A DNA stretch of 64,000 bases, taken from Candidatus Woesearchaeota archaeon (GTDB lineage Archaea; Nanobdellota; Nanobdellia; Woesearchaeales; WAPJ01). Where the stretch lies: positions 2,273 to 66,272 of the forward strand of contig JBLKOL010000001.1 in the NCBI GenBank assembly GCA_047602765.1. The letters run 5' to 3'. The position numbers and the translations under genes were made by a program. Below are positions 2,429 to 55,076 of the stretch, one piece after another (position 1 is the first letter of the stretch; every line of letters starts with the position of its first letter). The notes beneath the pieces are model-generated. The model did no database searches and was not told the origin of the DNA. It saw nothing but the letters and a program-made list of their open reading frames with translations.

Positions 2429-3184
2429 ATGGCGTCCTTCGAAGGCTTCTGGGCGGAGTTCCGTCGCAATTCGATCCCTCGGTGGCCTGAGAACCGTATC
2501 ATCCTCGCCTTCGCACTCATTGGCTTGCTCGCCGTGGGTTTCAACGACGTCCTCATCCTCGGTCCGCTCAAGACCGAAGGGACGCCGTACGAGCCGATCG
2601 TCCTCTTGTTCTCTGCGATCGGAGCGCTCATCGCCGTGTACAGCAACGTCCTCGTCCAGAAAGCGTTCGCACTGCGTCGTGGCATCCAGACGACGGCATC
2701 GTGGAATCCGCTCAAACTCGCCTTAGGAGCGCTCTTCAGTCTCTTCTCGTACGGACTGGCCCCTGTGGTCTTCCCACCGGACCTCGACGCGAAGATCAAA
2801 CCCTACCAGCGCGTCGGAAAATGGCGCTACCAAGTGAACTTCAAAGACTATGCGAAGATGGGCACGGCAGGTCTCATCGTGAATCTGATCATCGCAAGCG
2901 TATTCGCCCTGTTCGGCATGGCCGACCCGCTCACGCGCGGTATCGTCATCGCATCAGCGTTCTGTGCGGTGGGAACCATCCTTCCCATACCTCGTTCGGC
3001 GGGATTCTTCCTCTTCTACACGAGCTTCATATACTACGCATTGGTCCTCGGACTCGCAGCGATTGGCCTCATACTCGTCTATTCAGGGAGCGTCTCGCTC
3101 GCCATCACGCTCGGCCTTGTGATGACCGTGCTCTTCTGGGCGTTCGTCGTGCTCCAAGTGGACAAGATGATCGACATCACCTGA
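2429..3184 (+). CDS. Polytopic membrane protein, unknown function (251 aa)
   Basis: Six or more hydrophobic segments; leaderless start behind TATA. Confidence 0.6.
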   Translation: MASFEGFWAEFRRNSIPRWPENRIILAFALIGLLAVGFNDVLILGPLKTEGTPYEPIVLLFSAIGALIAVYSNVLVQKAFALRRGIQTTASWNPLKLALGALFSLFSYGLAPVVFPPDLDAKIKPYQRVGKWRYQVNFKDYAKMGTAGLIVNLIIASVFALFGMADPLTRGIVIASAFCAVGTILPIPRSAGFFLFYTSFIYYALVLGLAAIGLILVYSGSVSLAITLGLVMTVLFWAFVVLQVDKMIDIT

Positions 3185-8927: not shown

Positions 8928-11537
8928 ATGAACGATGTATCGAAGGAGCTCCAGGCGGTGCTCGATGCGCCTTCGACCGACCGCTACCGCTACCGTGCTC
9001 CTGATGGAGTATCTGAGGAGCTCGTACGTTCGATCAGCACCGAAAAAGGAGAACCGTCATGGATGCTCGACTTAAGGCTCCGCGCCCTCAAGATATACTC
9101 TGAGAAGCCCATGCCTGAGTGGGGTCCGGACCTCTCAGGACTCGATCTCGACGGACTTACGTACTATGTGACGCCCGATGCGAAATCGAACGCCGCATCA
9201 TGGGATGAGGTTCCTGATGATATCAAGAAGGTCTATGATGCGCTCGGCATCCCCCAAGCGGAACAGAAGGCGCTCGCCGGTGCAGGTGCACAGTTCGACT
9301 CAGGCGTCGTCTACCATCAGATCAAAAAAGAGTGGGAAGAGAAAGGGGTTATCTTCCTCGACATGGACGTAGCGCTTCGCGAACACGAAGAACTCGTCAA
9401 ACGGTATTTCGGCACGGTCGTCTCGCCCGCGCTCCACAAGTTCAGTGCACTGCATTATGCGGTCTGGTCGGGTGGGACGTTCATCTACGTGCCGAAAGGT
9501 GTTGACGTTCCGCTCCCGCTCCAAGCCTACTTCCGCATGAACGCGCGCAAGATGGGTCAGTTCGAACACACGCTCATCATCGTCGACGATGGAGCGCGGC
9601 TCATGTACATCGAAGGCTGTAGCGCCCCACAGTACAACGAATCATCGATCCACGCAGGCTGCGTTGAGGTCTACGTCGGCAGAGGTGCACGTGCACGTTA
9701 CTCGTCCGTCGAGAACTGGAGCCGCAACACGTACAACCTGAACACGAAATCCGCGCACGTTCACGAGGACGGTGTGATCGAATGGATAGGTGGGAACCTC
9801 GGATGCCTGACGGGAGATGCTCTGGTAGAAACCGTCGGGGGGCCACGTCGGATCGATGAGATAGAGGTCGGTGACCACGTCTATGCGCTCGACGAAACCG
9901 ACCGTTCGATCAAACCGCGCAGGGTTCTCGGGAGCGTCTTCAGCGGAATCAAAGAAGTGTATGTTGTAACGGTAAGCGGGCGGCGCCTGCGTGCGACGGC
10001 GAACCACCCGTTCCTCGTCATGGAGCGAGTGAAGCGTCACCCATCGCACAAGAAAGGATTCTTCAACGCGACGTGGAAGCCGCTCGCATACCTACGTGCA
10101 GGTGATTTGATCGCGGTACCGAGACGTCTCCCTGATGAAGGCACTCCCTACCGGCTCCCACAACCGGTTCGAGGGTCTTTCGCTCGAAGTAATAATCAGT
10201 ATGGCGATTTCATCATGCGTACCGGTAGCAGCATCCGTCAGATCAGAGTGCCGGATCATACGTCTGAGGATTTCATGTGGTTCCTCGGGCTTATGCTCGG
10301 CGACGGCCACGTCTGGTTTGACAAGAGCGCTACCAAAGCGAAGATCAACATCGCGATTCCGCGTTCGAGCGATCTGCGCACGCCACTCATCGAAACGTTG
10401 GAGTCGCTCTTCGACATACGCGAATTCTACGAACAGGAACGATACATCGTGGTGAACTCGATACAACTCGGATTGTTGCTCGAGGAGATAGGATTCGTCG
10501 GCAACGCCGATACGAAGAGTGTCCCTCGATGGGTCCATACGCTGCCACGCTCACAGAAACTCGCGTTCCTTGCAGGATACTTCGATTCTGACGGTCATGT
10601 CGGCCGGAACGGCATCTATCTCACGAGCATCAACGAAGACGTCTTACGCTCCATCCAACACGTCGCATTGAGCTGTGGTATGGGTTTCTCGCACGTTTTC
10701 AACCACGGTATCGAACGAGAGACTACGATCTGCGGTGTTCAGTGCATGGCGCATGAGAGTTTCAGATTGCTGTTGAACGGTCCTCTCGTTGGAGAATTGC
10801 CGACGAGAAGTCATTCTTACCGCGAATCCATCACGCGAATCAAGACGAAACGCAACTTCACCACCGCGAACGGCGTGAACTTCCGGCATGAGACGAGCGA
10901 TGATCTCGGATTCACCAGGGTGCAGTCGGTCGAAGCAGCAGGAATAGAGCCCACGTATGATATCGAAGTCGAAGGATCACACAATTTCATCGCGAACGGC
11001 ATCATAGTACACAACAGCGGCGTAACCATGCTCTACCCTTCGTCGATCCTCAAGGGCGCGAGAGCGAAGTCGGATCACATCTCGATCGCCTTCGCCGCGA
11101 AGGATCAGAACCAGGATGTAGGAGCCAAGGTCTTCATGCTCGCACCCAACACTGCAGCTACGATCACGTCGAAGTCGATCAGCCTCGACGGTGGCATCAC
11201 GAGCTATCGTGGTGTCGTCAAGGTAAGTCCTAAGGCGACGGGCGCGAACCTCTCGGTCGAGTGCGACGCGCTCATGATGGATAACCGTTCAGAGTCGAAC
11301 ACGTATCCGGTCATGGATATCCAGAACGATACCGCAACGATCACGCACGAGGCGACGGTGGGCAAGATCAGCGAAGAAGAGGTGTTCTACCTGATGAGCC
11401 GCGGTATTCCCGAAGAACAAGCGGTTCAGATGATCGTCTCGGGATTCATAGAACCGGTGATCAAAGAGCTCCCGCTCGAATACGCTGTGGAATTGAACCG
11501 TTTGATCGCGCTCGAGATGGAGGGGTCGCTCGGATGA
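8928..11537 (+). CDS. sufB: Fe-S cluster assembly protein SufB, interrupted by an intein
   Basis: SufB N- and C-extein sequence (…IEWIGGNLG / SGVTMLYPS…GKISEEEVFYLMSRGIPE…); 869 aa vs ~465 expected. Confidence 0.95.
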   Translation: MNDVSKELQAVLDAPSTDRYRYRAPDGVSEELVRSISTEKGEPSWMLDLRLRALKIYSEKPMPEWGPDLSGLDLDGLTYYVTPDAKSNAASWDEVPDDIKKVYDALGIPQAEQKALAGAGAQFDSGVVYHQIKKEWEEKGVIFLDMDVALREHEELVKRYFGTVVSPALHKFSALHYAVWSGGTFIYVPKGVDVPLPLQAYFRMNARKMGQFEHTLIIVDDGARLMYIEGCSAPQYNESSIHAGCVEVYVGRGARARYSSVENWSRNTYNLNTKSAHVHEDGVIEWIGGNLGCLTGDALVETVGGPRRIDEIEVGDHVYALDETDRSIKPRRVLGSVFSGIKEVYVVTVSGRRLRATANHPFLVMERVKRHPSHKKGFFNATWKPLAYLRAGDLIAVPRRLPDEGTPYRLPQPVRGSFARSNNQYGDFIMRTGSSIRQIRVPDHTSEDFMWFLGLMLGDGHVWFDKSATKAKINIAIPRSSDLRTPLIETLESLFDIREFYEQERYIVVNSIQLGLLLEEIGFVGNADTKSVPRWVHTLPRSQKLAFLAGYFDSDGHVGRNGIYLTSINEDVLRSIQHVALSCGMGFSHVFNHGIERETTICGVQCMAHESFRLLLNGPLVGELPTRSHSYRESITRIKTKRNFTTANGVNFRHETSDDLGFTRVQSVEAAGIEPTYDIEVEGSHNFIANGIIVHNSGVTMLYPSSILKGARAKSDHISIAFAAKDQNQDVGAKVFMLAPNTAATITSKSISLDGGITSYRGVVKVSPKATGANLSVECDALMMDNRSESNTYPVMDIQNDTATITHEATVGKISEEEVFYLMSRGIPEEQAVQMIVSGFIEPVIKELPLEYAVELNRLIALEMEGSLG
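9804..11015 (+). mobile_element. SufB intein (404 aa) with LAGLIDADG homing-endonuclease domain
   Basis: Cys1 CLTGDALV, block B ATANHPF, LAGLIDADG motifs LGLMLGDGHV (~10290) and LAGYFDSDGHV (~10570), C-terminal NGIIVHN followed by Ser+1. Confidence 0.9.
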
Positions 11538-26675: not shown

Positions 26676-27035
26676 TCATACGAACGGCACGTCGCTCGTG
26701 AATGAGCGGGGTTTCTTCTTGAAACGTTCAACGTCTCCGAAGGAGCGGAGCATCTTGATGTTGATCGTCCAGTACGCATCTGATTGTGGATTGGCAAATA
26801 TGATCCTCGATTCGGGGAGTTCGTCGAAGTGCGAGGCGACCCATGAGAGGTTCGCTTCGGTGTTGAGTGTGATGAGTACGTCTGCACTGTCGTGTTCGCG
26901 TGCGTCTTCGCTCACCAGATAGCGCTGGGTCTTCTTCGTCGTAACGTCGTATGCGGGTCCGTCCCCTTCGACCTTCCAACCTTTGAGTTTGCTGTTTCGG
27001 ATGAGGAACTGGCGACCCCACTCGGCTAGGTCCAT
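26676..27035 (-). CDS. Hypothetical protein (119 aa), divergent from herA
   Basis: ORF with its own TATA (cttataac 27059-27066) about 25 nt upstream; no motif recognised. Confidence 0.5.
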
Positions 27036-27082
27036 CGCCTCGTTCGAGGAGTGGGTGCTTATAACCTTGCCGAGCCATGTTA

Positions 27083-27090
27083 TTTATAAG
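27083..27090 (+). promoter_or_regulatory. TATA box for herA-mre11
   Basis: tttataag about 26 nt upstream of ATG 27112; back-to-back with the 27059-27066 TATA of the divergent gene. Confidence 0.5.
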
Positions 27091-27111
27091 CGCCTTGTCC
27101 TCCCTCCTCGC

Positions 27112-28581
27112 ATGGTCGTCGGAGAGGTGATCGCGGGCTCGTTCGAGGGTATCATCGCCCGTGAGAAGGCGGGTTCGAACGTCGAAGTCGGAGAACTCCT
27201 CGTCACGGTCGGTGATCCTTCGCTCATCGTCCAAGTCACCGGTATCGAATACGCGTCGCAGTTGAGCCAGCAGAACCGCGAGCTCATCGCAGGGCTTCGC
27301 TTGGAGGATGATGCGCAGCTCAACTTCTTCGACCGTTCGCTGCGTACCTACAATGTGCTCAGCCTCAAACTCCTCGCCGAAATCTCAAATGGTATCCGCG
27401 TTGCGAAGCGTCTTCCGGCGATGTTCTGCGAGTTGCGGCGCATCACCGATGGTGACCTCGGCTTTCTCGTATCCGAGGGTGATGTGTTTGCTGGGCGCGT
27501 GCGTTCGGGTTCTCGGGTTCTCGAGACACCTCTGCGTCTCGATTCCAAGAACGTATTGAGCCATCATGTACTCATCGCAGCCCAGACAGGTAAGGGGAAG
27601 TCGAACCTGACGAAGTGTTTGCTCGTCGATTCGCTTGAGAACCGTTCGTTCGGACTGCTCGTCCTCGATCCTCATGACGAGTATTTCGGCCGTTCCGGCG
27701 TTGGTCTCAAAGACGCACGGTCTTCGAATCTCGCGTACTATTCGAGCCAGGATCATCCGTTGGCCCAGCCGTTGCGCTTCAGGCTCAGCGAACTGCGACC
27801 CGTGCATTTCAACGGCGTTGCGAACTTCTCTCAGGCGCAGCATGAGGCGATCGCTTCGTTCCGCAGACGCTACCGTGACCGGTGGGTCGAAGAGCTCTTG
27901 AGTGCTGATGACGATTCGTTCCATGAGGCGACGCTTCAAGTGCTCAAACGTCGGTTCTCCAACCTGCTCTCCCTCGGTCCGAGCCTTGAGCCTTCGGGCA
28001 TGTTCGTGCGCGAGTCCTCATCACTCACGAGTATTCTCGATGCGCTCGAAGAAGGGCGTACCGTCGTGATCGATACGTCGCTCTTCGCTGGTGCACAAGA
28101 ACTCCTCGTCGGCTCGATCATCACCTCGGAACTCTTACGCCGATACCGTTCGTACAAACGCAGGGGAATCGTCAAGCCCCAGGTGTCGATCGTCATAGAA
28201 GAAGCTCCGCGGGTACTCGGAAAAGCCGTGCTCGCTCACGGTTCGAACGCGTTCGAAGAAGTAGCTCGTGAGGGACGCAAGTTCGGCGTAGGGCTCATCG
28301 CGATCACCCAGGTTCCGAGCCTCATCCAGCGTGAGATCCTCGCGAACATGAACACGAAGATCATCCTCGGACTCGAGATGGCGCTCGAACGCAGTGCGGT
28401 GATCGAATCAGCGGCTCAGGACATCTCGGATCTGAACGGTGCGATCGCGAGTCTTGAGAAGGGAGAAGCGATCATCACCTCATCGTTCGTACGCTTCCCG
28501 ATGCCGATCGCCATGCCGCTCTTCGAAGAACTCCTGCCTGAGCATTCGCATCCGACGCCAGGCTCGAAGGTGCGGTTCTGA
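27112..28581 (+). CDS. herA: HerA-type (DUF87/FtsK-like) hexameric ATPase/helicase
   Basis: HAS-barrel-like N-terminus [14 protein letters not shown], Walker [11 protein letters not shown], Walker [11 protein letters not shown]. Confidence 0.85.
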
Positions 28582-29780
28582 TGCGGTTCGCCCACCTCGC
28601 AGACCTGCACTTGGGCGGTTGGCGTGATGAGAAGCTCAAAGCCCTCGGACTTGAAGCGTTCGAGCGAGCCGTCGATCTGATCATCGAAGAATCGCCTGAC
28701 TTCGTCGTCATCGCAGGCGATTTCTTCAACACAGCCCTTCCTGGCATCGAATCCGTCAAACACGCATCGGTACAACTATCCCGTCTGCGTACGGCAGGCA
28801 TCCCGGTATACTTGATCGCGGGCTCGCATGATTATTCTGCTTCGGGAAAGTCGATGCTCGACGTCCTTGAAGGAGCGGGATTGGCGCGCAACGTTCAGAA
28901 GGCGCGGTATGGTCGTGACGGTCGGATCGAGCTCGAATACACGGTTGACGAGAAGACCGGGGTGAAACTCGCAGGCCTACCGGGGAAGAAGGGAGCGCTC
29001 GAATCCCAGTACTACGACGTGCTCGACCGAGACGCAGCGGCACGAGAGTCGGGTGTGAAGATATTCTTGTTCCACATGCTCCTCTCAGAATTCAAACGAG
29101 CCAAAGACGATCAGATCCCTTCATCTCCGTCTTCGGTGCTCCCGCCGGGCTTCGCCTACTATGCGGGTGGCCACCCGCACCTCGTGGAGCACAAGCGCTT
29201 CGGCGAGGGTATCGTCGCGTATCCGGGTCCGCTCTTCCCCAACAACTTCGAAGAGCTCGAAGAGCTCGGCTCGGGTGGATTCTACTTCGTCGACCTCGGA
29301 TCGGGTTCGGTCGAGTGGAAGCGCATCCTGACGCGTCCCGTCGTTCGTATCGACGTATCCTTCGATGGTGATCCATCACAGCTCGAAGAACGGCTCGTCG
29401 AAGAGGTCGACCGTGAGCTCGCCGGCTCGATCGTGCTCGTACGCGCGTCAGGATCGCTCACCGGTCCGGTGTCGGAGGTCGACTGGTCTCGTATCGAGCG
29501 AAGAGCGTTCGAGCGTGGAGCCTATGCCTTCGCGAAGAACACCTACAAGCTCGCGGCTCGTACGTACGAGCGCGTCGATGTAGCAGTCTCACACGAGCAT
29601 CTCGAATCGCAGATCATCACCGAGTTCTCCGAGAAGGCCTCGGCTTCAGAAGTCCTCGGAGAGAATGCGTTTGAACGACTCTTTTCGACGCTCGCCAAGC
29701 ACAAGCATGAGGGTGAGACGAACGCTGACTTCGAGAAGCGCATTCTCGATGATTTCGAAGCTGAGTTCGGCGTTCGTTGA
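28581..29780 (+). CDS. mre11: Mre11-type metallophosphoesterase nuclease
   Basis: [32 protein letters not shown] phosphoesterase motifs, collinear with archaeal Mre11; start overlaps the herA stop. Confidence 0.85.
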   Translation: MRFAHLADLHLGGWRDEKLKALGLEAFERAVDLIIEESPDFVVIAGDFFNTALPGIESVKHASVQLSRLRTAGIPVYLIAGSHDYSASGKSMLDVLEGAGLARNVQKARYGRDGRIELEYTVDEKTGVKLAGLPGKKGALESQYYDVLDRDAAARESGVKIFLFHMLLSEFKRAKDDQIPSSPSSVLPPGFAYYAGGHPHLVEHKRFGEGIVAYPGPLFPNNFEELEELGSGGFYFVDLGSGSVEWKRILTRPVVRIDVSFDGDPSQLEERLVEEVDRELAGSIVLVRASGSLTGPVSEVDWSRIERRAFERGAYAFAKNTYKLAARTYERVDVAVSHEHLESQIITEFSEKASASEVLGENAFERLFSTLAKHKHEGETNADFEKRILDDFEAEFGVR

Positions 29781-45413: not shown

Positions 45414-47771
45414 TTACCGGTATGCCTTGTCGAGGGCTTCGTGCACGGTGAGGTGGTCTCTTGTCGGTCCGACATCCATCTCTATCTTACTGCTCCCGGT
45501 CGTCGTCACCTGTACGATGCCGGTTTTGAAGATTTTGTCGAAGAACCTTTGGCTGGTGTTGAGGTGGTCGATGCGATCGTAGAAGATGACCTTGCGTGTG
45601 GGGTAGATGAACCGAACTTCGCGTACGATGCGGTGCTCTTCGATGAGGAACGTCGTTCTGCTCGCTCGGATCGCTGCGATCACTGCTGCGATGAGGACGA
45701 TCGGCAAGAGCGGTAGGATGATGCCGATGAGCATGATCGGAACGGCGATGCGCGATGATGAGAGGTGCACGGTCCGCTGCGCATCGCTCGGAGGCGCGAA
45801 TTCGTCGAGCTTGACGCTCAACTCATGCGATGTGTCGAATGCGGATGGGATGTACGGTGCATTGACGGTGTTGGGGATGACGTGTTCTCCCTTGTCGGTC
45901 TTGATGATCCCTTCTCCTGCTACGTTGAAGGCGATCGAGCCTTCGGTTCCGAAGGGGTATTGTGTGGTGGTCACGCCTTTGATGTCTTCGACATTGACGA
46001 ACGACTGCGTGCGGGTGAACCATCCGTGCGTTTCGTAAAGAGTATTCTCGTCGATGGTGAAGTATGCGTTGCGGTATGTGAGTCTCTCTGATAGGATGAT
46101 CGCGAAGAAGATGAGCACGACGATCCCTGTGGTGACCGTCAAGACGTACGGTACGAACAGGTTCACGACCGCCGCGATGGCGAGCACGAACGCCGATGTG
46201 ATGAGGCTGTATGTATATGCTTTGAGGATCGTTCCGATGCGTGGCTCTGAGCGTATGAGGTGTTCGGTGGGCTCGCGCAACCCGTACTTCTCTTCGAGCA
46301 TCCGTATGATGCCGCTCGCCTCGTCGACCGATCGGAACGTGATGCGTGCTCCTGATCCGATCGACCAGTAATCCACACTTACTGTCTTTGCGATCCGGTC
46401 GATGATGCTGCGTCTGAGCGTGATGCGTGTGATCCGATCGTCGCTGAAGGATTGTTCATCCCGGTTGAAGAAGTCGACGTTGCTCTTCACCCGGTTCGGC
46501 TCGATCGTATACGTCGTTACGGCGATCATGATCGCGTTCCCGATGAGTCCGACGGCTCCTACGATGAGTGTGAGAACCACGATTCCGATTAAGAGTGGGA
46601 ATGCACTGAGTGCTCCGAGGGCTGCAGCGATCACGGATGCGAAGACCAAGAGTACGAATGCGAGGCCCGCGCTGATTCCGAAGCTGACGAAAGCAGGGCG
46701 CATGCTCGGCTTGTAGTTCGTCGTCTTCACCGTAGCGGCGCGTGTGCGTCGTTCGGCTCGTTTGCGTGCGGCCGCTCGTACTTCGCCTCGGTGGTCCGGT
46801 TTCTCCTCGCTTGCGACTGGTGTTCGATCCGTGTCGATGAGTGTGCTGATGCTCGTGTCGAACCGCTTGGCATCGGTGAGGTTGCAGAACTTGATCTGCG
46901 AGCCGCTGCCCTGACAGCTTACGATGACATCCGATACGCCGAAGATGCGTTTGAGCAGCGGTTCTCGTATCTGGCTGTTGCTCAAGTTCTCGACAGGGAT
47001 GACGGCGCGTCGTTTCGTGAGGAATCCTTCGTCATAGTAGACGCCGTCTTCGGTGATCGTATAGGTTTTGGAGACTGAATTGAGGTAGTATGCGTAGAGC
47101 CCGATCGCGCTGATGATAAGGACGATGGCAGGTATGATGAGTAGCACCGGAGAGATCATGAGGAGCGGTATGATCGATGCTCCTCCGAAGTAGAGCAAGA
47201 CGAATAGGGTGCCGATGGATGCGCTGATCACGTCGATGATCGCTCCTGTGGGGCTCGCACGGGTTTCCATCAGGTTCTTCTCGCTCGAGAGCGAGAAGCC
47301 GTTGCGTTTCATGAGGTCCTGTACGATGGTATAGATACGTTCGGGTTCGTCGAGATAGAGTAGGTGCGCTTCAACACCTGCGGTTCCCGCTGATTCGACG
47401 TGCACCGCTCCGGTTCCGAAGAGCTTGTTCTCGATCCATGGAAGCACGAGTTTGACGTGCGTGACGTTTCGGATCTCGAGTTCGGTGCTCGAATCGGAGA
47501 ACGGCCCTCCGGTTGTGGTGACGATGCGCGTCTTCTCGAAGCGGTAGTTCGTCTTTTCGTAGCGGATCTTCGTGCTGTAGATGATCCACGGTACGTTGAG
47601 GAGGAGCAGGGTGCCGACTCCGATGGTGATCAGCGAAACCCACTGTGCACCTTCGAGGACCAAGCCGATCGTGATGAGTGCGATGGCGAATAGCAGGCTG
47701 ATGGTGATGCCGATGATGCGTTGGAAGGTAACGAGAACCGTGCGGTTCGGCTTGAGGGTGAGCGGCTCCAT
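45414..47771 (-). CDS. Membrane protein with five tandem TM-hairpin + bacterial PH (bPH_2, YdbT/YdbS-like) modules
   Basis: Five repeats of two TM helices followed by Y-x-[FI]-x...[LI]xxR... beta-rich ~80-aa unit (e.g. TNYRFEKTRIVTTTG, KTYTITEDGVYYDEG, TTYTIEPNRVKSNV, NAYFTIDENTLYETHG, TTFLIEEHRIVREV). Confidence 0.75.
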   Translation of the reverse strand: MEPLTLKPNRTVLVTFQRIIGITISLLFAIALITIGLVLEGAQWVSLITIGVGTLLLLNVPWIIYSTKIRYEKTNYRFEKTRIVTTTGGPFSDSSTELEIRNVTHVKLVLPWIENKLFGTGAVHVESAGTAGVEAHLLYLDEPERIYTIVQDLMKRNGFSLSSEKNLMETRASPTGAIIDVISASIGTLFVLLYFGGASIIPLLMISPVLLIIPAIVLIISAIGLYAYYLNSVSKTYTITEDGVYYDEGFLTKRRAVIPVENLSNSQIREPLLKRIFGVSDVIVSCQGSGSQIKFCNLTDAKRFDTSISTLIDTDRTPVASEEKPDHRGEVRAAARKRAERRTRAATVKTTNYKPSMRPAFVSFGISAGLAFVLLVFASVIAAALGALSAFPLLIGIVVLTLIVGAVGLIGNAIMIAVTTYTIEPNRVKSNVDFFNRDEQSFSDDRITRITLRRSIIDRIAKTVSVDYWSIGSGARITFRSVDEASGIIRMLEEKYGLREPTEHLIRSEPRIGTILKAYTYSLITSAFVLAIAAVVNLFVPYVLTVTTGIVVLIFFAIILSERLTYRNAYFTIDENTLYETHGWFTRTQSFVNVEDIKGVTTTQYPFGTEGSIAFNVAGEGIIKTDKGEHVIPNTVNAPYIPSAFDTSHELSVKLDEFAPPSDAQRTVHLSSSRIAVPIMLIGIILPLLPIVLIAAVIAAIRASRTTFLIEEHRIVREVRFIYPTRKVIFYDRIDHLNTSQRFFDKIFKTGIVQVTTTGSSKIEMDVGPTRDHLTVHEALDKAYR

Positions 47772-48294: not shown

Positions 48295-49200
48295 TTAGCA
48301 GGTGACGTTCGTCGAGCCGGTGTAGTCGTCGAGGCGGTCGGTGTCGAGTCGGAACCAGTCCGGAGTGCCGCTCATGCACTGCGCTTCGTGTGCGATCGTC
48401 GAGAAGTAGAGCGCGTCGATCGAGCTTCGTCCATCGTAGGTTCCGACTCCTTGGACGAGGAAGCGCTGTCCGCTCACGATGCTCTCGATACCGTGTTCTG
48501 ATGCTGAGAAGTTTCCTTCGAGGCGCATGAGGAAGCTCGGACTCTTGTTCGACGAACGGTACTTGCTGTTCATCATAGACCAGTTGATGAGCGTTGGGAT
48601 GTCGGTTTCGTTCGTGAATTCTACGATGTTGCTGATCCTACCGATGCTCGCCATGTAGTATGCTGGGTCTTCGAGTCCGCCCACCGGGATGTCAACCTCA
48701 ACCCGGATGTCCCGCTCGTATCGTCGCTCTTGGCGCGGATCGCTCAGGTTGTAGGTGAGCGTCGCTGCGTTCGTGATCGCGTATGGGGTTGTGTGGTACT
48801 GTTCGAGCGATATGATTTCGTATTCGAAGTGGTATCCTCTGTTCGCATAGATCGTCCTGGTCCGGTCGAGCCAGTCGATGAGTCCGCTTCCGTTGAGCGC
48901 TGATACGTTGACTCCTTCGATCGTTCGGTTGAGCATCCCTTCGTGGTAGCTCGCGTTCAGGTCGACGAGGTACTCGCCGGTCTGTGTGATCTTCTCGATC
49001 TGTCCTATGACGGTACGGTATGATGAGATGTACACTCCGCGCTCGAGGTCCTCTTCGAATGCGTCGATCACCGCGTTCATGGATTGTACGATGCTGATCG
49101 GACTCTGGGTCGCACGTGTCGGCTGATCGATCGTCGTCGCGAATACGAATACGACGCTGCTCAGGATGATGGCGATGAACGTGTAGGCGACGCCTCTCAT
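48295..49200 (-). CDS. Pilin-like protein with class III signal peptide (301 aa), 10 N-glycosylation sequons
   Basis: MRG|VAYTFIAIILSSVVFVFA N-terminus; ATGA overlap with the upstream vWA gene. Confidence 0.65.
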   Translation of the reverse strand: MRGVAYTFIAIILSSVVFVFATTIDQPTRATQSPISIVQSMNAVIDAFEEDLERGVYISSYRTVIGQIEKITQTGEYLVDLNASYHEGMLNRTIEGVNVSALNGSGLIDWLDRTRTIYANRGYHFEYEIISLEQYHTTPYAITNAATLTYNLSDPRQERRYERDIRVEVDIPVGGLEDPAYYMASIGRISNIVEFTNETDIPTLINWSMMNSKYRSSNKSPSFLMRLEGNFSASEHGIESIVSGQRFLVQGVGTYDGRSSIDALYFSTIAHEAQCMSGTPDWFRLDTDRLDDYTGSTNVTC

Positions 49201-51875
49201 CGTGTTACCTCGACCACGTATTCCGAGGGGCCCCACAGGCTCGGCACGTCTTGAGTGATGGCTACTTCGACGCTGAGCTCCTGCTCGCGAAGGTAGATGT
49301 CGATGCGCCCGGTGTTCGTCACGTCGAGTTGGCGGAAGAGCTCGTATGCTGCGCGGTCGTATGCGTCCTGATCATCGTACGTTGCGGTTTCGTAGTAGCA
49401 TTCTTTCGTGCCGTTGTAGTGCGCGGGGATGCTGATCTCATAGATGTTGAGGTCCTCTTGCATGACGAACCAGTGGCAGCCTTCGGCCTTGGGTGTGACG
49501 ATGGAGACTGTCGGGTTGATCGCGACGGCTGCGTTGATGACGATGCTGTTGTTCACGCTGCACCCTGTCTCGTTGCCCGGCTCGTTTCCGGTGAGCAGTG
49601 CGATCGTGTTCGATCCGTTCACGAACCGATCTGCGGGGAGTCCGACGATGAACGGGTCTCCGATGAGTGTGTAGTCGTCTGAGTACCTGCTGATGTTGAA
49701 GACGGTGTGCGCATTGATACCCACCAGGCTCGTCCAATGTTCGTCGCTGTAGCTTGTCACATGCGCGTCGACGACCCGCAGGTTGCTGCCGAGCAGGAAG
49801 TCATCGGTGCAGTGGTCGAATGTGGGTGTTTGTACGGTGATCGGTACTTCGTTGATCCCTGCTGGTTGCGCGATCGGATCGTAGGTGAACGATATGTAAC
49901 TGTTCGTAAGGTTCGATGCCATACCTTCGCCCGGATGGACGATCTGTGAGGTGTACGTCGTCCGTGAGAGGATCTCTTGGGTGACGGTTTCGTAGAATCC
50001 TGCGAGGTCGCTGAAGTCGTCGCTCGCGAAGAACATCGACTCATCACATGCTGTGTGTCTGAGGGTGTCGATACCTGTCGGTGTCAAGTCGTCTCCGATG
50101 GCTATGGTGAATACTGATATGTTGTTCGCGCAGGCGTACTGGCCTGCGTCGATCGTCGCTTGGTTCGCGATGTTCTCTGCTGCGTGTGTTCCTGAGTAGT
50201 CTCCGGGACCTGTGCAGTCGTGTGTTGAGTCTCCGTCAGAGAGTACGATCATGTAGCTGTGGTTTGCGCTCAGATTGGTATACATGTCGAAGGCGCGGTA
50301 GATGCCGCAGCAGATACACGTCCATCCGCCGGCGGTATACGAGTCGATCTCGTCTTCAACAGCGGCGAGGTTATCGGTGAGGTCGAGCACGGATCGCACT
50401 CCGGTGCTGTATGACACGGTGCCGACGCGTGCGAGATCCGATTGGAGGATGCCTGCCGCGGCTGTCTTTGCGGCTTCGATGGCGACTCGCATGCGTGATC
50501 GGCATGCGTCGTGGTTGTACGTATTCACGCACGTGGGTGATCCGCCGCATACGTCTCCTGTACAGGCGTCGACTGATCCGACCGTGCAGGTTTTGGTTGT
50601 TGTGAGGGGCCAGATCCACCACATGTACTGGCAGCCGTATGTACAGGTGAGTGGGGGTTCGGTGTCTCCGCATACGCTCATGGACCCTGATACGTCGGTG
50701 ACTAGGGTTGTATCCGAAGGGCGGTCTACGGTGATGTATCCTGTGTAGTTGACACCTTCAAGTCCCATCCTGATAGGGTTCGTTCCGCTCATCGCGCTGT
50801 AGTCGAGCATGCTCAGATCCGCGTCGGTGAGCGTGATGCTCTCGCTCGATATGTTCGTGCCGTTGTACACCGTCGTGTTTCCGATGGTGAGGAAGTACGT
50901 TGTGGTGATGTTCTGTGGGAGGAGCGCGTCGTACTCGAGGTTGATCTCGAGTGAGGTGAGGTTCCCGGGTACGGTGAACGAGTCGTAGATGTTGATGATG
51001 CCGTAGATGTCGGGGAAGTGGTAGGTTCCGTGTCCTACTGGTGGGATCGTGATGCGGTCGGTCGTGTACCGTACGCGTACGAATCCTCCTCCGACGAATG
51101 CGGTTTCGAGTTCGTCGAACGAGAGTCTGACGCGGTTGTTTCCAGGTGTGAGCGCGGAGATGCACGGCGAGAGATCGAAGTACTGGCTCTCTTTGTATGC
51201 TGGTTGTGCGGTGAACGTCCCGCAGCTCACTGTGTTGACGGTCACTTCTACGTCTTGGCTGATCGCTGCTTCCATGGAGAACGATACGACCCTGCTCGCT
51301 TCGATGTCGCTCGGCAGGTCTCTGAGTACGACTTCGACGTCTCCTTGTCCTGAGAATCCTCCGAAGTACGCGAACGTCGAGGTCGTTCGATTGCTCGAGG
51401 CTGAGAACTGCATGCGCGCGCTGTACCCTCGTACGGGTTGGCTCTTGTTGATGCCTGATACGAGTCGTGTCGTTCTGCTGATCGTACGAGGCTGGGCTGC
51501 TGCGTTCGTGTAGAGCGCTTCTTCGTTGATGAGCGTTGAGAATCCGCTCATGTTCGATACGTGTTCGCTCACGTTCGTGATGATGCGTTCTGCGAGGGTG
51601 AGGTTTCCGTTCGCCCATAATTCGGATGTGTATTCGAGGATGCTCCTCTCCATCTGTAAGGGCTCGACGGTTCCGTTTCCGCGGAGCTCTGCGATGAGTG
51701 GTGCGGTTGATTCCGAGACGGGTATGGCTGAGAGTGCTCGGATGAGGTCGTGTGCGAGGATCTGTTCGTTCTGCGATCCGTGGTCCGTTCCGATGCTCGT
51801 GATCAGTATGATCGTTCCGAGCAGGATTCCGGTTGCGATGAGCGCATCGATAGTGAACAGTTGGCCTAGTGCCAT
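49197..51875 (-). CDS. Large pilin-like surface protein (892 aa) with class III signal peptide and vWA/MIDAS domain
   Basis: MALG|QLFTIDALIATGILLGTIILI; MIDAS DVSGSMS ... T(GGWT) ... MIVLSDGDS; 21 NxS/T sequons. Confidence 0.8.
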   Translation of the reverse strand: MALGQLFTIDALIATGILLGTIILITSIGTDHGSQNEQILAHDLIRALSAIPVSESTAPLIAELRGNGTVEPLQMERSILEYTSELWANGNLTLAERIITNVSEHVSNMSGFSTLINEEALYTNAAAQPRTISRTTRLVSGINKSQPVRGYSARMQFSASSNRTTSTFAYFGGFSGQGDVEVVLRDLPSDIEASRVVSFSMEAAISQDVEVTVNTVSCGTFTAQPAYKESQYFDLSPCISALTPGNNRVRLSFDELETAFVGGGFVRVRYTTDRITIPPVGHGTYHFPDIYGIINIYDSFTVPGNLTSLEINLEYDALLPQNITTTYFLTIGNTTVYNGTNISSESITLTDADLSMLDYSAMSGTNPIRMGLEGVNYTGYITVDRPSDTTLVTDVSGSMSVCGDTEPPLTCTYGCQYMWWIWPLTTTKTCTVGSVDACTGDVCGGSPTCVNTYNHDACRSRMRVAIEAAKTAAAGILQSDLARVGTVSYSTGVRSVLDLTDNLAAVEDEIDSYTAGGWTCICCGIYRAFDMYTNLSANHSYMIVLSDGDSTHDCTGPGDYSGTHAAENIANQATIDAGQYACANNISVFTIAIGDDLTPTGIDTLRHTACDESMFFASDDFSDLAGFYETVTQEILSRTTYTSQIVHPGEGMASNLTNSYISFTYDPIAQPAGINEVPITVQTPTFDHCTDDFLLGSNLRVVDAHVTSYSDEHWTSLVGINAHTVFNISRYSDDYTLIGDPFIVGLPADRFVNGSNTIALLTGNEPGNETGCSVNNSIVINAAVAINPTVSIVTPKAEGCHWFVMQEDLNIYEISIPAHYNGTKECYYETATYDDQDAYDRAAYELFRQLDVTNTGRIDIYLREQELSVEVAITQDVPSLWGPSEYVVEVTR
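49965..50714 (-). other. von Willebrand factor A domain (approx. aa 388-637) with 8-Cys insertion after the DxSxS motif
   Basis: TTLVTDVSGSMS, RVAIEAAKTAAAGIL, VGTVSYSTG, YTAGGWT, YMIVLSDGDS, VFTIAIG. Confidence 0.7.
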
Positions 51876-52315
51876 GCGATCACCTCGAGTCGCGCGATGG
51901 TTCCGTTGTATGCGACGATTCGCTCGATGCGTCGTACGGTATCGCTCGTATCGTATCCGAGCGTGGCTGTATCGTTATAGTTGGTGATGATCCCTAGATC
52001 GGATGGATGAACGCTGATGCGGTAGTAGTAGGGTGTTGAGAGCATCGTGTTCTTCGTGTCGATGTCGAACCCGCGTAGGGTCATCCACTTATCTGTGTCG
52101 ATCGAGTCGTTGCTCAGAAGTCCGATGCGCAATACGTTCGTCTCGTTCCAATCGGCGGGGTATCCGCTTGTGAGGAGCTCTTCGCTCAGTCGTACGAGGT
52201 CGATGTCTCGCTCGCCTTGTGTGCTGATCTGACTGTAGTTGAAGAATGCGAACACCGCGATCATGAAGATGAGGAATCCTGCTGCGAAGTCCGTAGCGCT
52301 TACTTGTCCTCTCAT
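51866..52315 (-). CDS. Pilin-like protein with class III signal peptide (149 aa)
   Basis: MRG|QVSATDFAAGFLIFMIAVFAFF; 10-nt overlap with the downstream gene, ATGA with the upstream gene. Confidence 0.7.
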   Translation of the reverse strand: MRGQVSATDFAAGFLIFMIAVFAFFNYSQISTQGERDIDLVRLSEELLTSGYPADWNETNVLRIGLLSNDSIDTDKWMTLRGFDIDTKNTMLSTPYYYRISVHPSDLGIITNYNDTATLGYDTSDTVRRIERIVAYNGTIARLEVIAWH

Positions 52316-52692
52316 GATACGATCACGCTTCCTTCGTGTTTTCGTACGGTGAACGAGCCTGAGTCGAGTTCTACGGTTCCGTTCACGTCGGGTATGCGGA
52401 TGATGTTCGAGTAGAGGCTGCTCTCGGCTTCGATCCAGTTGTCGTGTACGCGGATCGTCATGCTGACGGCGTTCCGCGGTTTGATAACTATGGTTCGCTC
52501 GTATCCGTCTCGTGCGATGGCTGCGGCGACGAGTTCTGATTGGAGTCGTTCGAGTTCATCGTTCACGCTCGTCTGGTGTCGTGCTTGGGACGTACGCTCG
52601 GCATACGTGCTTGCGATGGCTATGAAGGTAGCTGCGATGAGCAGTGCAGCTGCGATGAGTATCGCATATTCGGCTACTGCCTGTCCTCTCAT
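52312..52692 (-). CDS. Pilin-like protein with class III signal peptide (126 aa)
   Basis: MRG|QAVAEYAILIAAALLIAATFIAI (TadE/Flp-like QxxxEY); ATGA overlaps on both sides. Confidence 0.7.
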   Translation of the reverse strand: MRGQAVAEYAILIAAALLIAATFIAIASTYAERTSQARHQTSVNDELERLQSELVAAAIARDGYERTIVIKPRNAVSMTIRVHDNWIEAESSLYSNIIRIPDVNGTVELDSGSFTVRKHEGSVIVS

Positions 52693-53093
52693 GTGATGTG
52701 TACTCCTGTTGCTGTGCTTGTCAACACGAGGTTGCGGTATCCTTGTGCGGGTATCGGAGCATCCCATGTGAGGTTCGCGTATGTGCTGGTGAGCACGACT
52801 TCCCGGCTTCCCGGCCCTGCGTTGTATCGCATGACGATGGTTCTCTGCTCGGTTGTGATGCTCTCGATTCCCGAGGGTATGTAGACGCGGATGGTCCTTT
52901 TCGCTGGCGGTCCTTCGAAGGCGAGTTCGTCTGCGGTCGTTACGATCGTGAAGGAGATGCGTTCGAGTTGGCGTTCGGTGATCCGCGCTTCGTGGAGTTG
53001 GCTCGTTCCGATGCCTGCGAGTATGGCTGGGATGATGATGAGCAGTGAGAATCCTACGATCATCACGTATTCGATCGATACCTGTCCCCTCAT
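52689..53093 (-). CDS. Pilin-like protein with class III signal peptide (134 aa), first gene of operon
   Basis: MRG|QVSIEYVMIVGFSLLIIIPAILAG matches the archaeal class III signal (RGQxSxEY) pattern. Confidence 0.75.
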   Translation of the reverse strand: MRGQVSIEYVMIVGFSLLIIIPAILAGIGTSQLHEARITERQLERISFTIVTTADELAFEGPPAKRTIRVYIPSGIESITTEQRTIVMRYNAGPGSREVVLTSTYANLTWDAPIPAQGYRNLVLTSTATGVHIT

Positions 53094-53125
53094 GGCGCTC
53101 CCTCGGGGATCCCTGCGCGAACGCG

Positions 53126-53134
53126 CTTTATAAG
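53126..53134 (-). promoter_or_regulatory. TATA box for pilin-like operon
   Basis: ctttataag 33 nt from ATG 53093. Confidence 0.45.
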
Positions 53135-53219
53135 CCTATGAGAAATTTCGTATCCACTTTGTAGTGAAAACTCGTCGGTGGGTTTATATATGTCTGGGGT
53201 ATTGTCACTGTACGACTTT

Positions 53220-53270
53220 GGAAACACCTCTTTCCCCTCAGGGGCCATCGGGTCCGGGGGGAAAGTTTCC
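53220..53270 (-). terminator. GC-rich imperfect hairpin immediately 3' of the Lon-like CDS
   Basis: GGAAAC(acct)CTTTCCCC...loop...GGGGAAAGGTTTCC: 6+8 bp stem; abuts stop codon at 53271. Confidence 0.3.
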
Positions 53271-55076
53271 TTATCTTGTCTTCCCGACTTTCTTGAGTCG
53301 TCGTTTCGGCCGCCGGCTCGTGCGGACCGTACCTTTTCCTGCTGTGATGATCAATCCGATGCCTGCCATGGTGAAGACGCCGAGGGCGAAGGCGAGCCGT
53401 GTGTCGCGTTCGAACGTGATCACGGGGTGGTGTTCTCGTTCGAGGTAGAGGTCGAGTTCGGCGAGGCTCAGTGCGTTCTCGATGTAGAGGAGTGCGGTTC
53501 CGAGGTTATCTTCGTAGAGGCTCTGTGCGTATTCGTAGTACGAGTATGCCATGACCGGGAAGTGTCCTTTGCGTGTCTGCTCGGCGATCGCTTCGTAGGC
53601 GGCTGCACGTTTCGCTTCGTAGAGTTTGGGAAGGTCATCTTCTTGTACACCGATGGTTGAAAGGAAGGTTTCGGCTCGCGCAGTGAGCAGGGAAGCCTGG
53701 TAGATGCACACCGCATATTCGTTGTTCCGGTATGCTTCGTGGATCGAAGATACGTCGAGCACGTTCACTCCGGTGATGTACCCTGTGTACTCGGCGAGTT
53801 CGGTGACCGCTGAGAGTTTTCGGGTGCATGCGCGTCTGAGCGTGCGATCGCTGATCGCTTCTCCGGTCTCGAACCCTGAGAACTGCATCCAACTCTCCAT
53901 CGAATCGATACGTGCGAGTGCATATGCTGCGGTGAAGAGCATGCTCTCGTCGAATCGCGTCCTGAAGTCGGTCGACACCTGTTCGCGTTCGAGTTCTTCG
54001 CGAAGCGCGTCTCCGACCGTTGAGCTCTCACGGTAGCGTTCTTCGACGATCGAATAGATCTGTATGTCGTTGAGATCCGGATTCTCCATCTGTGCTTCGA
54101 ATGAGGAGAAGATCTCGCTGGCGCGTTCGAGGTTCTCATCGAGCGTTACGATCACTGCTTCAGATGCTTCATCATCAGGAAGGTCGAGGGTCATGTCGAC
54201 GAGTTGGAGGTAGTATCGTTGTACGCGGATGTTGAAGCAATGGCTCGCCTGCGTATAGTAGTCCCCGCTCTCCTGTGCTTCACGTGCGTTTCGCGTCAGG
54301 TTCTCGACGCGTTCGTATGCGACCCTCACGCTTTCAAGATCTATTTCGAGCGGTGGTGTTTCCTGTTCGGCGCACAGTTCGATGCCGACGTTCCTCATCG
54401 TATCGCGATACGATGCCGGGACTACGATCGTCGCATCGACGGCACTTGTGTCTTCGAGTCCGAGCGCTCCGATAACATCGCTCAGGGACTGTGCGCGTGT
54501 CACCTGTATGGTTTCATCATCAGGTGTGTGGTTCGCGAGGTACGGTATGATGACTTGGTGGAGTCCTGCGCGTTGCGCGGCTTGGATCTTCTCGGAGATG
54601 CCTCCGACGTTTCCGACGACACCTCCGGAGCTGATCGTTCCGGTCACCGCTGTTGTCTGCGGGATGCTCTGTCCGGTGAGTACTGCGTAGGTGATCGCTG
54701 CTGCAGCGGCTCCTGCTGAAGGTCCGCCCACGATCGGGGCTCCCGATTCGATGCTGTAGAGGAAGTCGTAGCGGTCGCAGTCGACGTTCGCGTATTCGCA
54801 GGCGTACCGTTGCGCGTACGTGGTCGATGCCTGCGTGTCGATCTTGGTGAGCGGATCCGAGTGGATGTATACGTTTCCGCTTCCTTCTACGACGCGCAGG
54901 TTCAGGTATGCGATGCCGCCTCGTTGTTCGACACCTGCGTTATCCACAGATACGGCGAGGAGCGGTACGCGTGCGCTCGAAGGATCGCTCACATGCTCGG
55001 GCAAGAGGACGAGTATCCACGCAGTCGTTATGAGGAGGACGATACCGAAGAACATCGCTGCCCGAGAGAATCCCAT
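53271..55076 (-). CDS. Membrane-anchored Lon-type S16 serine protease domain protein (no AAA+ module), long helical domain, C-terminal TM
   Basis: N-terminal TM, IVGGPSAGAAAAAI (Ser), TGTISSGGVVGNVGGISEKIQAAQRAGLHQVIIP (Lys), C-terminal TM plus RRPKRRLKK. Confidence 0.8.
   Translation of the reverse strand: MGFSRAAMFFGIVLLITTAWILVLLPEHVSDPSSARVPLLAVSVDNAGVEQRGGIAYLNLRVVEGSGNVYIHSDPLTKIDTQASTTYAQRYACEYANVDCDRYDFLYSIESGAPIVGGPSAGAAAAAITYAVLTGQSIPQTTAVTGTISSGGVVGNVGGISEKIQAAQRAGLHQVIIPYLANHTPDDETIQVTRAQSLSDVIGALGLEDTSAVDATIVVPASYRDTMRNVGIELCAEQETPPLEIDLESVRVAYERVENLTRNAREAQESGDYYTQASHCFNIRVQRYYLQLVDMTLDLPDDEASEAVIVTLDENLERASEIFSSFEAQMENPDLNDIQIYSIVEERYRESSTVGDALREELEREQVSTDFRTRFDESMLFTAAYALARIDSMESWMQFSGFETGEAISDRTLRRACTRKLSAVTELAEYTGYITGVNVLDVSSIHEAYRNNEYAVCIYQASLLTARAETFLSTIGVQEDDLPKLYEAKRAAAYEAIAEQTRKGHFPVMAYSYYEYAQSLYEDNLGTALLYIENALSLAELDLYLEREHHPVITFERDTRLAFALGVFTMAGIGLIITAGKGTVRTSRRPKRRLKKVGKTR

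Follow-up and report, generated by a model that had tools for sequence, protein, structure and literature searches.

A conserved set of five pilin-like genes in DPANN archaea as a candidate minor-pilin and tip-adhesin complex of a type IV pilus

To our knowledge, every DPANN archaeon in culture depends on touching a host cell directly, and we know of no molecule established as the one by which they recognise it. Earlier work has pointed to type IV pilus loci in DPANN lineages without, as far as we know, settling which pilins they encode. The present analysis concerns a stretch of 64,000 nucleotides, hereafter the window, from a genome labelled Candidatus Woesearchaeota archaeon (GenBank assembly GCA_047602765.1, contig JBLKOL010000001.1, positions 2,273 to 66,272 of the forward strand). 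On its minus strand, between window positions 48295 and 53093, lie five consecutive, overlapping genes, named here O1 to O5. Their products all start with a very short leader and a hydrophobic helix, and one of them is a giant protein with a von Willebrand factor A (vWA) domain. What structure do these five proteins serve, and how can they serve it with no pilus assembly genes beside them? A first reading of the letters alone (the sequence-only reading) had taken them for archaeal class III-signal pilins that form an orphan tip-adhesin module. We consider it likely that the five genes encode a minor-pilin and tip-adhesin (priming) complex of a DPANN type IV pilus. Three lines of evidence lead to this reading: the conserved linkage of the set to genes for a T2SSE ATPase and for TadC platform proteins in related loci, the rules obeyed at the predicted cleavage sites, and the similarity of the vWA fold to that of pilus-tip adhesins.

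Five overlapping genes and the rules at their predicted cleavage sites

The five open reading frames (ORFs) are read in the order O1 to O5, all on the minus strand. O1 (52689-53093, family p1) encodes a pilin-like protein of 134 amino acids (aa), in which the leader MRG is followed by QVSIEYVMIVGF, with QVSIEY as the first residues. O2 (52312-52692, family p2) encodes 126 aa when an internal ATG is used, the longest ORF giving 151 aa, and its MRG leader precedes QAVAEYAILIAA, starting with QAVAEY. O3 (51866-52315, family 3, DUF7287-like) is a 149-aa protein starting MRG and QVSATDF. O4 (49197-51875, family V), by far the largest at 892 aa, is a predicted modular, pilin-like vWA adhesin that starts MALG and QLFTID. 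O5 (48295-49200, family 5), a candidate cap pilin, has 301 aa from its ATG (313 aa in the longest ORF, from GTG) and starts MRG and VAYTFIAIIL. The junctions, read directly from the sequence, are ATGA for O1/O2, O2/O3 and O4/O5, and the 10-nt ATGGCACTAG for O3/O4. Independent gene calls on identical public contigs return the same five products, with O5 identical to ACMXYM_00325 and O3 to ACMXYM_00335 of an NCBI metagenome-assembled genome (MAG) labelled Candidatus Woesearchaeota archaeon. The gene sizes, Gly-ending leaders and overlaps given by the sequence-only reading are thus borne out by the ORF list, the public gene calls and the junctions themselves.

Each of the five proteins opens with a leader of 3-4 residues whose last is Gly, and some 20 hydrophobic residues come next. 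Their relatives, collected as described below, were aligned on the predicted cut site (non-duplicate members: n=160 for the p family, which holds O1 and O2, n=75 for family 3, n=86 for family V and n=80 for family 5). The alignments obey near-invariant rules. First: position -1 is G, A or S throughout the p, 3, V and 5 families, a single sequence excepted, and K or R stands at -2 or -3 in 153 of 160 p sequences, 73 of 75 family-3 sequences, 84 of 86 V sequences and all 80 family-5 sequences. Second: Q+1 and E+5 are present in every p sequence (160/160), and the DUF361/QXSXEXXXL criteria (Q+1, S/A+3, E+5, aliphatic +9) are matched by QVSIEYVMI in O1 and QAVAEYAIL in O2. In Methanococcus, pilins of this QXSXEXXXL/DUF361 type are processed by a dedicated peptidase, EppA (PMC2910488). 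Third: family 3 starts with Q+1, position +6 is acidic in 74 of its 75 members and in all 86 of family V (D+6 in both O3 and O4), and no member of family 5 (0/80) has D or E anywhere between +1 and +12. The only two V sequences that lack K/R at -2/-3 are O4 itself and its 60%-identity relative in locus L008, both with Leu at -2. Together with the linkage to motor genes described below, these rules uphold the proposal that the set consists of class III-signal pilins.

O1 and O2 are paralogues, and jackhmmer finds each from the other. Against the Pfam model Class_IIIsignal (PF04021), they score 16.1 and 16.0 bits, below the gathering cut-off of 23.7, and 13 of 40 p1 orthologues match the same model at E<=0.01. 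The NCBIfam ArlF equivalog gives O2 23 bits, where at least 110 are required, a similarity that lies in the N-terminal helix alone. A third p subgroup, present in 20 loci, comprises proteins of 140-165 aa that start with QAAMEFLMTYGWAIL and are often encoded just after the TadC genes (QAAMEFLMTYGW type); this subgroup is the obvious candidate for the major pilin.

As a control for chance, all six frames of the window were scanned for leaders of the form K/R-[GAS] with 22 hydrophobic residues directly behind them. Among real genes, the scan recovered O1, O2 and O3 with their true leaders and the O5 ORF in a shifted register only, from its upstream GTG start; it missed O4, which fails the -2 K/R rule. 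The other returns were the N-termini of two ABC permeases and several short or antisense shadow ORFs. A run of five such genes is therefore not a pattern to be put down to chance.

Conservation across DPANN and linkage to pilus motor genes

A scan of species-representative genomes with the single O4 sequence gave no match. The alignment-based rescan succeeded, with at least 246 relatives, from which 80 loci were kept, all DPANN; the best O4 relatives among the GTDB species representatives searched, which do not include the window's species, have 35-36% identity and belong to Woesearchaeota. A metagenome scan with the family-5 alignment added 74 further loci, none from the window lineage and none above 35% identity. 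All ORFs of the collected loci were labelled by hidden Markov models. In total, the module occurs in 162 non-duplicate DPANN loci, in Woesearchaeota, Pacearchaeota, Nanoarchaeota, Aenigmarchaeota, Micrarchaeota, Altiarchaeota and Nanohaloarchaeota. Conservation of gene order in relatives had been named as a test of the original idea, and the order p1-p2-3-V-5 indeed recurs across these roughly 160 loci, with family 3, V and family 5 contiguous in 98 of them and the full pp3V5 run in 77.

The neighbourhood of the set is as telling as its order. A T2SSE ATPase gene lies within about 10 kb in 38 of the 43 loci that have at least 7 kb on both sides, and two T2SSF/TadC genes follow the ATPase wherever the flank is long enough. 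Homologues of O4 taken from the protein database likewise lie in this five-gene arrangement. In a micrarchaeotal locus (L005), the set stands back-to-back with the T2SSE ATPase and two T2SSF/TadC genes, and the genes of L007 and L010 run T2SSE, T2SSF, T2SSF, a KaiC-like ATPase, family 3, V and family 5. Four loci (L007, L010, L056 and L068) share a layout in which the two p genes are in divergent orientation and the KaiC-like ATPase gene stands between TadC and family 3 ('<p<p E F F K 3 V 5'). This layout identifies 3-V-5 as the set's rigid core. Overlap of adjacent genes is likewise widespread: in a survey that used heuristic start sites, three of the four junctions are overlapping in over half of the loci, and p1/p2 is so in 26 of 61, most often by 4 or 10 nt (-4, -10). 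The 10-nt overlap of family 3 and V also appears in the pipeline gene calls of L005, L007, L008, L010, L012 and L101, distant loci among them.

Other genes and variants recur at these loci. A DUF192 (COG1430) gene of about 115 aa is present in 19 loci, standing between family 5 and the ATPase in L033, L037, L038, L044, L073 and others. A gene of about 383 aa with a winged helix-turn-helix and a coiled coil recurs between the module and the ATPase and is elsewhere fused to the N-terminus of the T2SSE ATPase. In two nanoarchaeotal MAG loci, L045 and L048, the giant vWA gene is duplicated or triplicated in tandem (VV5, VVV5), a sign that the adhesin may be diversifying.

Part of this neighbourhood has been seen before. 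Hamm et al. 2024 described two conserved type IV pilus-like loci with CpaF, TadC, coiled-coil proteins and FlaF/PilA in cluster-2 DPANN (PMC11291902). Their loci occur in the same lineages and have the same neighbourhood (CpaF/T2SSE, TadC, a coiled-coil protein), with genes for filament proteins in 'Locus 1', and the 383-aa gene mentioned above is likely their 'CCP'. Neither the main text of that paper nor those of its supplements that were searched (PMC11291902) name a vWA protein or a five-gene pilin set. For Nanohaloarchaeota, Xie et al. 2022 reported Tad-like clusters with "no pilins annotated" (PMC9563170). The window differs from the loci of Hamm et al. in that ATPase and TadC genes no longer accompany its set, as is true of its lineage.

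How complete is this detachment? Searches of the 64-kb window by jackhmmer with T2SSE, T2SSF and KaiC-like queries from related loci gave no match, and none of the polytopic membrane ORFs tested in the window is an A24 peptidase. Two candidates were examined individually and rejected. An ORF of 251 aa with about seven predicted transmembrane segments (2429-3184, plus strand) lacks the GxGD motif, which makes it no obvious A24 peptidase, and has no Pfam match even at E<=10. An ATPase gene with a DUF87 (HerA central) domain (26983-28581, plus strand) has a calcineurin-like phosphoesterase gene directly behind it; judged by domains and adjacency alone, the two (26983-29780, plus strand) are probably HerA-Mre11-like DNA-repair genes and include no pilus ATPase. 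They form the sole sizeable ATPase pair in the window.

The same arrangement is found in the closest relatives. All five genes are kept in members of the lineage with O4 at 80, 76, 61 and 60% identity, and also in two more distant relatives, L012 and L101, with O5 at 50% and 43%. In L008, L012 and L101 the context is a topoisomerase gene, a Lon_C gene, zero to two further genes, the module and, further on, a DHH gene, with no ATPase or TadC gene within the flanks. Because relatives down to 43% identity share the uncoupled layout, the separation from the motor genes is old, and the five genes have stayed intact and overlapping. Their integrity disfavours decay and argues for continued function; it also makes it likely that the missing partners (ATPase, two TadC proteins, peptidase and major pilin) are encoded elsewhere in the genome, outside the window. 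Such a separation of pilin genes from the ATPase/TadC module is frequent in euryarchaea (PMC4858521). The description of the set as an orphan module therefore needs qualification: it is accurate for the window, which has no ATPase, platform or A24 peptidase gene, but the layout is a minority one among related loci, 38 of the 43 fully flanked loci having T2SSE close by. The five fully flanked loci without T2SSE are the window, L008, L057, L011 and L176. 'Orphan' thus means detached in the window lineage.

Folds of the subunits and a proposed tip complex

The statement of the sequence-only reading that no globular part of these proteins matches a family does not quite hold for O3. Over its full length, O3 scores 25.7 bits (E 1.9e-5) against Pfam DUF7287 (PF23958) and just misses the gathering cut-off of 27; six of 40 family-3 orthologues match DUF7287 at E<=0.01, the best at 6.9e-9. 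O3 is accordingly best described as a probable distant relative of DUF7287, not as a formal member. Searching proteins with the family-3 alignment gave 16 matches, all DPANN, and did not reach the haloarchaeal DUF7287 proteins. We found no paper in the literature on DUF7287, DUF7288, DUF7289 or DUF7266. Some family-3 members are about 370 aa long instead of the usual 160 or so (L055, L036, L039, L025-L027, L014 and L048) and so appear to carry an added C-terminal domain.

O4 contains a complete metal-ion-dependent adhesion site (MIDAS), as had been noted from the letters: the Pfam VWA model scores 36.7 bits (cut-off 23.8), and the residues D394-x-S396-x-S398, T519 and D547 fall in columns conserved across the family alignment. 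The AlphaFold model of the full protein (pLDDT 75, pTM 0.51) shows, in order, an N-terminal hydrophobic helix (residues 9-27), a helical domain, beta-sandwich domains, the vWA domain and C-terminal beta domains, with a Cys-rich insert in the vWA domain modelled at low confidence. Foldseek aligns the model to vWA domains with target-normalised TM-scores of 0.55-0.79. Once ITIH1 and generic vWA domains are set aside, the best matches are pilus-tip adhesins, at E values of 1e-7 to 1e-9: Mfa5 of the type V pili of Porphyromonas gingivalis (6tnj, 6to1), SpaC of Lactobacillus rhamnosus (6m3y) and PilB of Streptococcus sanguinis (7b7p). A sequence-profile search of the PDB with O4 likewise matched 4rck and 6tnj (Mfa5). 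The suggestion of a tip adhesin thus gains from both the fold of O4 and the linkage of the set to a pilus motor.

O5 is modelled with higher confidence (pLDDT 90.4, pTM 0.81) as a pilin-like lollipop, in which a hydrophobic helix (residues 2-24) is followed by a long second helix (34-74) and an antiparallel beta-sheet. It has no Pfam family, the family-5 profile has no sequence relative in the PDB, and the model has no Foldseek match in PDB or BFVD at E<=0.001. The family-p1 profile also returned nothing significant from PDB sequences. Sequons for N-glycosylation are dense in O3 to O5 (range 2.4-3.4 per 100 aa; 3.4 in O3 and 3.3 in O5), compared with 0-0.7 in four cytoplasmic proteins of the window and in a Lon_C-like membrane protein, and O4 has 20 Cys residues. 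Both the sequon density of O3 to O5 and the Cys content of O4 fit an extracellular location.

Several known systems help to interpret this set. A first likeness is to the priming or tip complex of bacterial type IVa pili and type II secretion systems (T2SS), which combines four minor pilins with the vWA-bearing PilY1 and places PilX or GspK, which lack Glu5, at the apex (PMC7541494). As in FimU-PilV-PilW-PilX with PilY1, and in GspH-I-J-K, four small or medium pilin-like proteins and a large vWA adhesin are encoded together, and one subunit lacks the N-terminal acid (O5 here, PilX and GspK there). The differences are also clear: O1 to O5 are not members of the bacterial sequence families, the archaeal acid stands at +6 in two of the families, and the archaeal system has two TadC genes and no secretin. 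PilY1, moreover, combines a type I signal with a beta-propeller at its C-terminus, whereas O4 itself carries a class III-type N-terminus, shows no Pfam match to the PilY1 propeller and is modelled with beta-sandwich domains in its C-terminal part. O4 in turn resembles S. sanguinis PilB (PMC8179133; 7b7p; Foldseek E 5.7e-8), in which a pilin N-terminus is fused to a MIDAS vWA domain, but PilB is bacterial and only about 420 aa long, and O4 adds the helical and beta-sandwich domains and the Cys-rich vWA insert.

Among archaea, a further parallel is offered by the Epd pili of Methanococcus maripaludis and the euryarchaeal clade 1/2 type IV pili, which share QXSXEXXXL/DUF361 signal peptides, two TadC genes, minor pilins with large adhesin-like proteins, and the possibility of pilin genes lying apart from the ATPase/TadC module. 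For euryarchaea, Makarova, Koonin and Albers (2016) described a general design with a pair of TadC genes, five or more minor pilins and one large adhesin, and discussed vWA proteins only as regulators of the ArnB type (PMC4858521). The euryarchaeal adhesins carry DUF2341, whereas O4 carries vWA, and no orthology between O1 to O5 and EpdA-C is claimed. The comparison with bacterial Tad systems drawn by the sequence-only reading stands in part. TadE, TadF and TadG likewise unite small pseudopilins with a larger vWA-like membrane protein, alongside a CpaF-type ATPase and two platform genes (TadB/TadC), so that the analogy of minor pilins plus vWA is sound; none of O1 to O5, however, has a TadE-family Pfam match at E<=1, nor is there one to TadF or TadG, and the resemblance is one of function and layout only. 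As judged by comparison with these systems, the five-protein set would stay within the type IV filament paradigm.

From these likenesses, we propose a sequence of assembly steps. O1 to O5 would be co-transcribed and translationally coupled, and hence made in roughly fixed proportion. Each protein would insert into the membrane by its N-terminal hydrophobic helix and be cleaved by a prepilin peptidase after Gly -1, and the complex would then be built on a TadC-type platform. Because its acid-less N-terminal segment mirrors those of PilX and GspK, O5 is placed at the apex, where it would be adjoined by the vWA adhesin O4 and by O3, both with Asp+6; O1 and O2, with Glu+5, would link the complex to the shaft of major pilin. 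The ATPase-driven platform would polymerise major pilin beneath the complex and push it outward, so that the tip presents the MIDAS vWA domain, which would bind a host cell or a surface with the help of a metal ion.

Four observations weigh against this proposal. First, the ATPase, TadC and A24 peptidase genes are not in the 64-kb window, and neither is a candidate major pilin of the QAAMEFLMTYGW type. Second, the Class_IIIsignal and DUF7287 scores of the window's own proteins fall below the curated cut-offs. Third, the Leu that replaces K/R at -2 makes processing of O4 less certain. Fourth, the order of the subunits and their location at the tip are suggested by analogy with bacteria.

The alternative that survives best is that the proteins build no filament in this lineage: they would be motor-independent, pilin-like proteins that remain anchored in the membrane as an adhesin complex, with the vWA domain exposed on the cell surface by a short stub. 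The separation of the module from ATPase and TadC genes, shared by relatives down to 43% identity, speaks for such a stub, as does the loss of the -2 K/R of O4 in exactly this lineage. Yet the lineage retains the +5/+6 acids and an acid-less O5, features that matter in filament packing; machinery encoded in trans is common in archaea (PMC4858521); and the motor is next door in 38 of 43 fully flanked relatives. We regard the stub as unlikely. A similarly low probability attaches to a broader version, in which the lineage has no motor of its own and the detached set is either a motor-independent stub or uses an archaellum-type or other type IV pilus platform, serving as a free-standing host-recognition module; more broadly, p-p-3-V-5 would be the long-sought determinant of DPANN host attachment.

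Slightly less probable again is a role in a pseudopilus or uptake machine, where the set would prime a short T2SS-like or competence-like fibre for DNA uptake or protein export, with the vWA domain binding cargo. A minor-pilin set with an acid-less cap also occurs in T2SS pseudopili (PMC7541494), and pilus-mediated DNA import has been speculated for DPANN (PMC9563170); set against this, the closest structural matches of O4 are adhesive pilus-tip proteins, and no secretin-like or DNA-binding component was seen in the roughly 160 loci. We think it very improbable that O1 to O5 are ordinary Sec signal-anchored membrane proteins with no link to type IV filaments, or bindosome-like solute-binding components. 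The sub-threshold Pfam class III signal scores could be read in that way, but Q+1/E+5 is invariant in 160 sequences, K/R-[GAS] occupies the predicted cut site, most loci show physical linkage of the set to T2SSE and TadC, and none of the five proteins has a solute-binding protein family in Pfam or NCBIfam. That the set is the decaying remnant of a lost pilus locus, as the lack of machinery nearby might hint, is barely credible, given five intact ORFs, overlaps conserved in relatives at 80-43% identity, and the retention of the key residues (MIDAS, Q+1, E+5 and D+6).

Neighbouring genes and the meaning of the set

The intergenic region 5' of O1 (53094-53270, minus strand) contains two A/T-rich, TATA-like boxes, read directly from the sequence as ATATATAAA at about 53190-53181 and TTATAAAG at 53133-53126, which may constitute a putative promoter. 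A hydrophilic ORF of 52 aa (53090-53248, minus strand), called by the pipeline, overlaps the start of O1 by ATGA and spans both boxes; it may be spurious, because it covers the intergenic region in which the two boxes lie.

Beyond this region, the module is flanked by housekeeping genes: a membrane Lon_C-like protease, a LigT-like phosphoesterase, topoisomerase I, GAPDH and PGK, and further a NUDIX protein, a 785-aa protein with five bPH_2 matches, DHH/DHHA1 and GatB. The product of the Lon_C-like gene (53271-55076, minus strand) is a membrane protein of 601 aa whose protease domain is of the Lon_C (S16) type; Pfam detects no AAA+ ATPase domain in it. In the window, L008 and L012 the gene is the immediate upstream neighbour of the module, in L101 it is two genes removed, and a few unrelated DPANN loci (L036, L038, L044 and L055) carry a homologue no more than 10 kb from the module. 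As an alternative signal peptidase or a member of the module, this protease was considered and rejected, since two genes intervene in L101 and it is absent from most loci. Its position beside the module is probably lineage synteny, though a role in pilin maturation may exist. The 785-aa protein (45414-47771, minus strand) is a polytopic membrane protein whose five bPH_2 matches denote bacterial PH domains, and it is kept downstream of the module in the lineage, L012 included. Elsewhere in the window, an 869-aa SufB/SufD protein (8928-11537, plus strand) is split by an intein with a LAGLIDADG homing-endonuclease domain. Those window proteins whose acidity was computed are only moderately acidic.

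What emerges is a five-protein set that DPANN phyla have in common: a pair of pilins with Q+1 and E+5, one DUF7287-like pilin, one giant pilin that bears a vWA domain, and one pilin of about 300 aa that lacks the N-terminal acid and whose fold has no match. The window lineage indicates that this set can persist over long evolutionary time away from its motor genes. The five proteins bear the hallmarks of a pilus priming or tip complex, and would provide an archaeal counterpart to the bacterial minor-pilin/PilY1 paradigm and concrete candidates for the attachment and host range of DPANN archaea.

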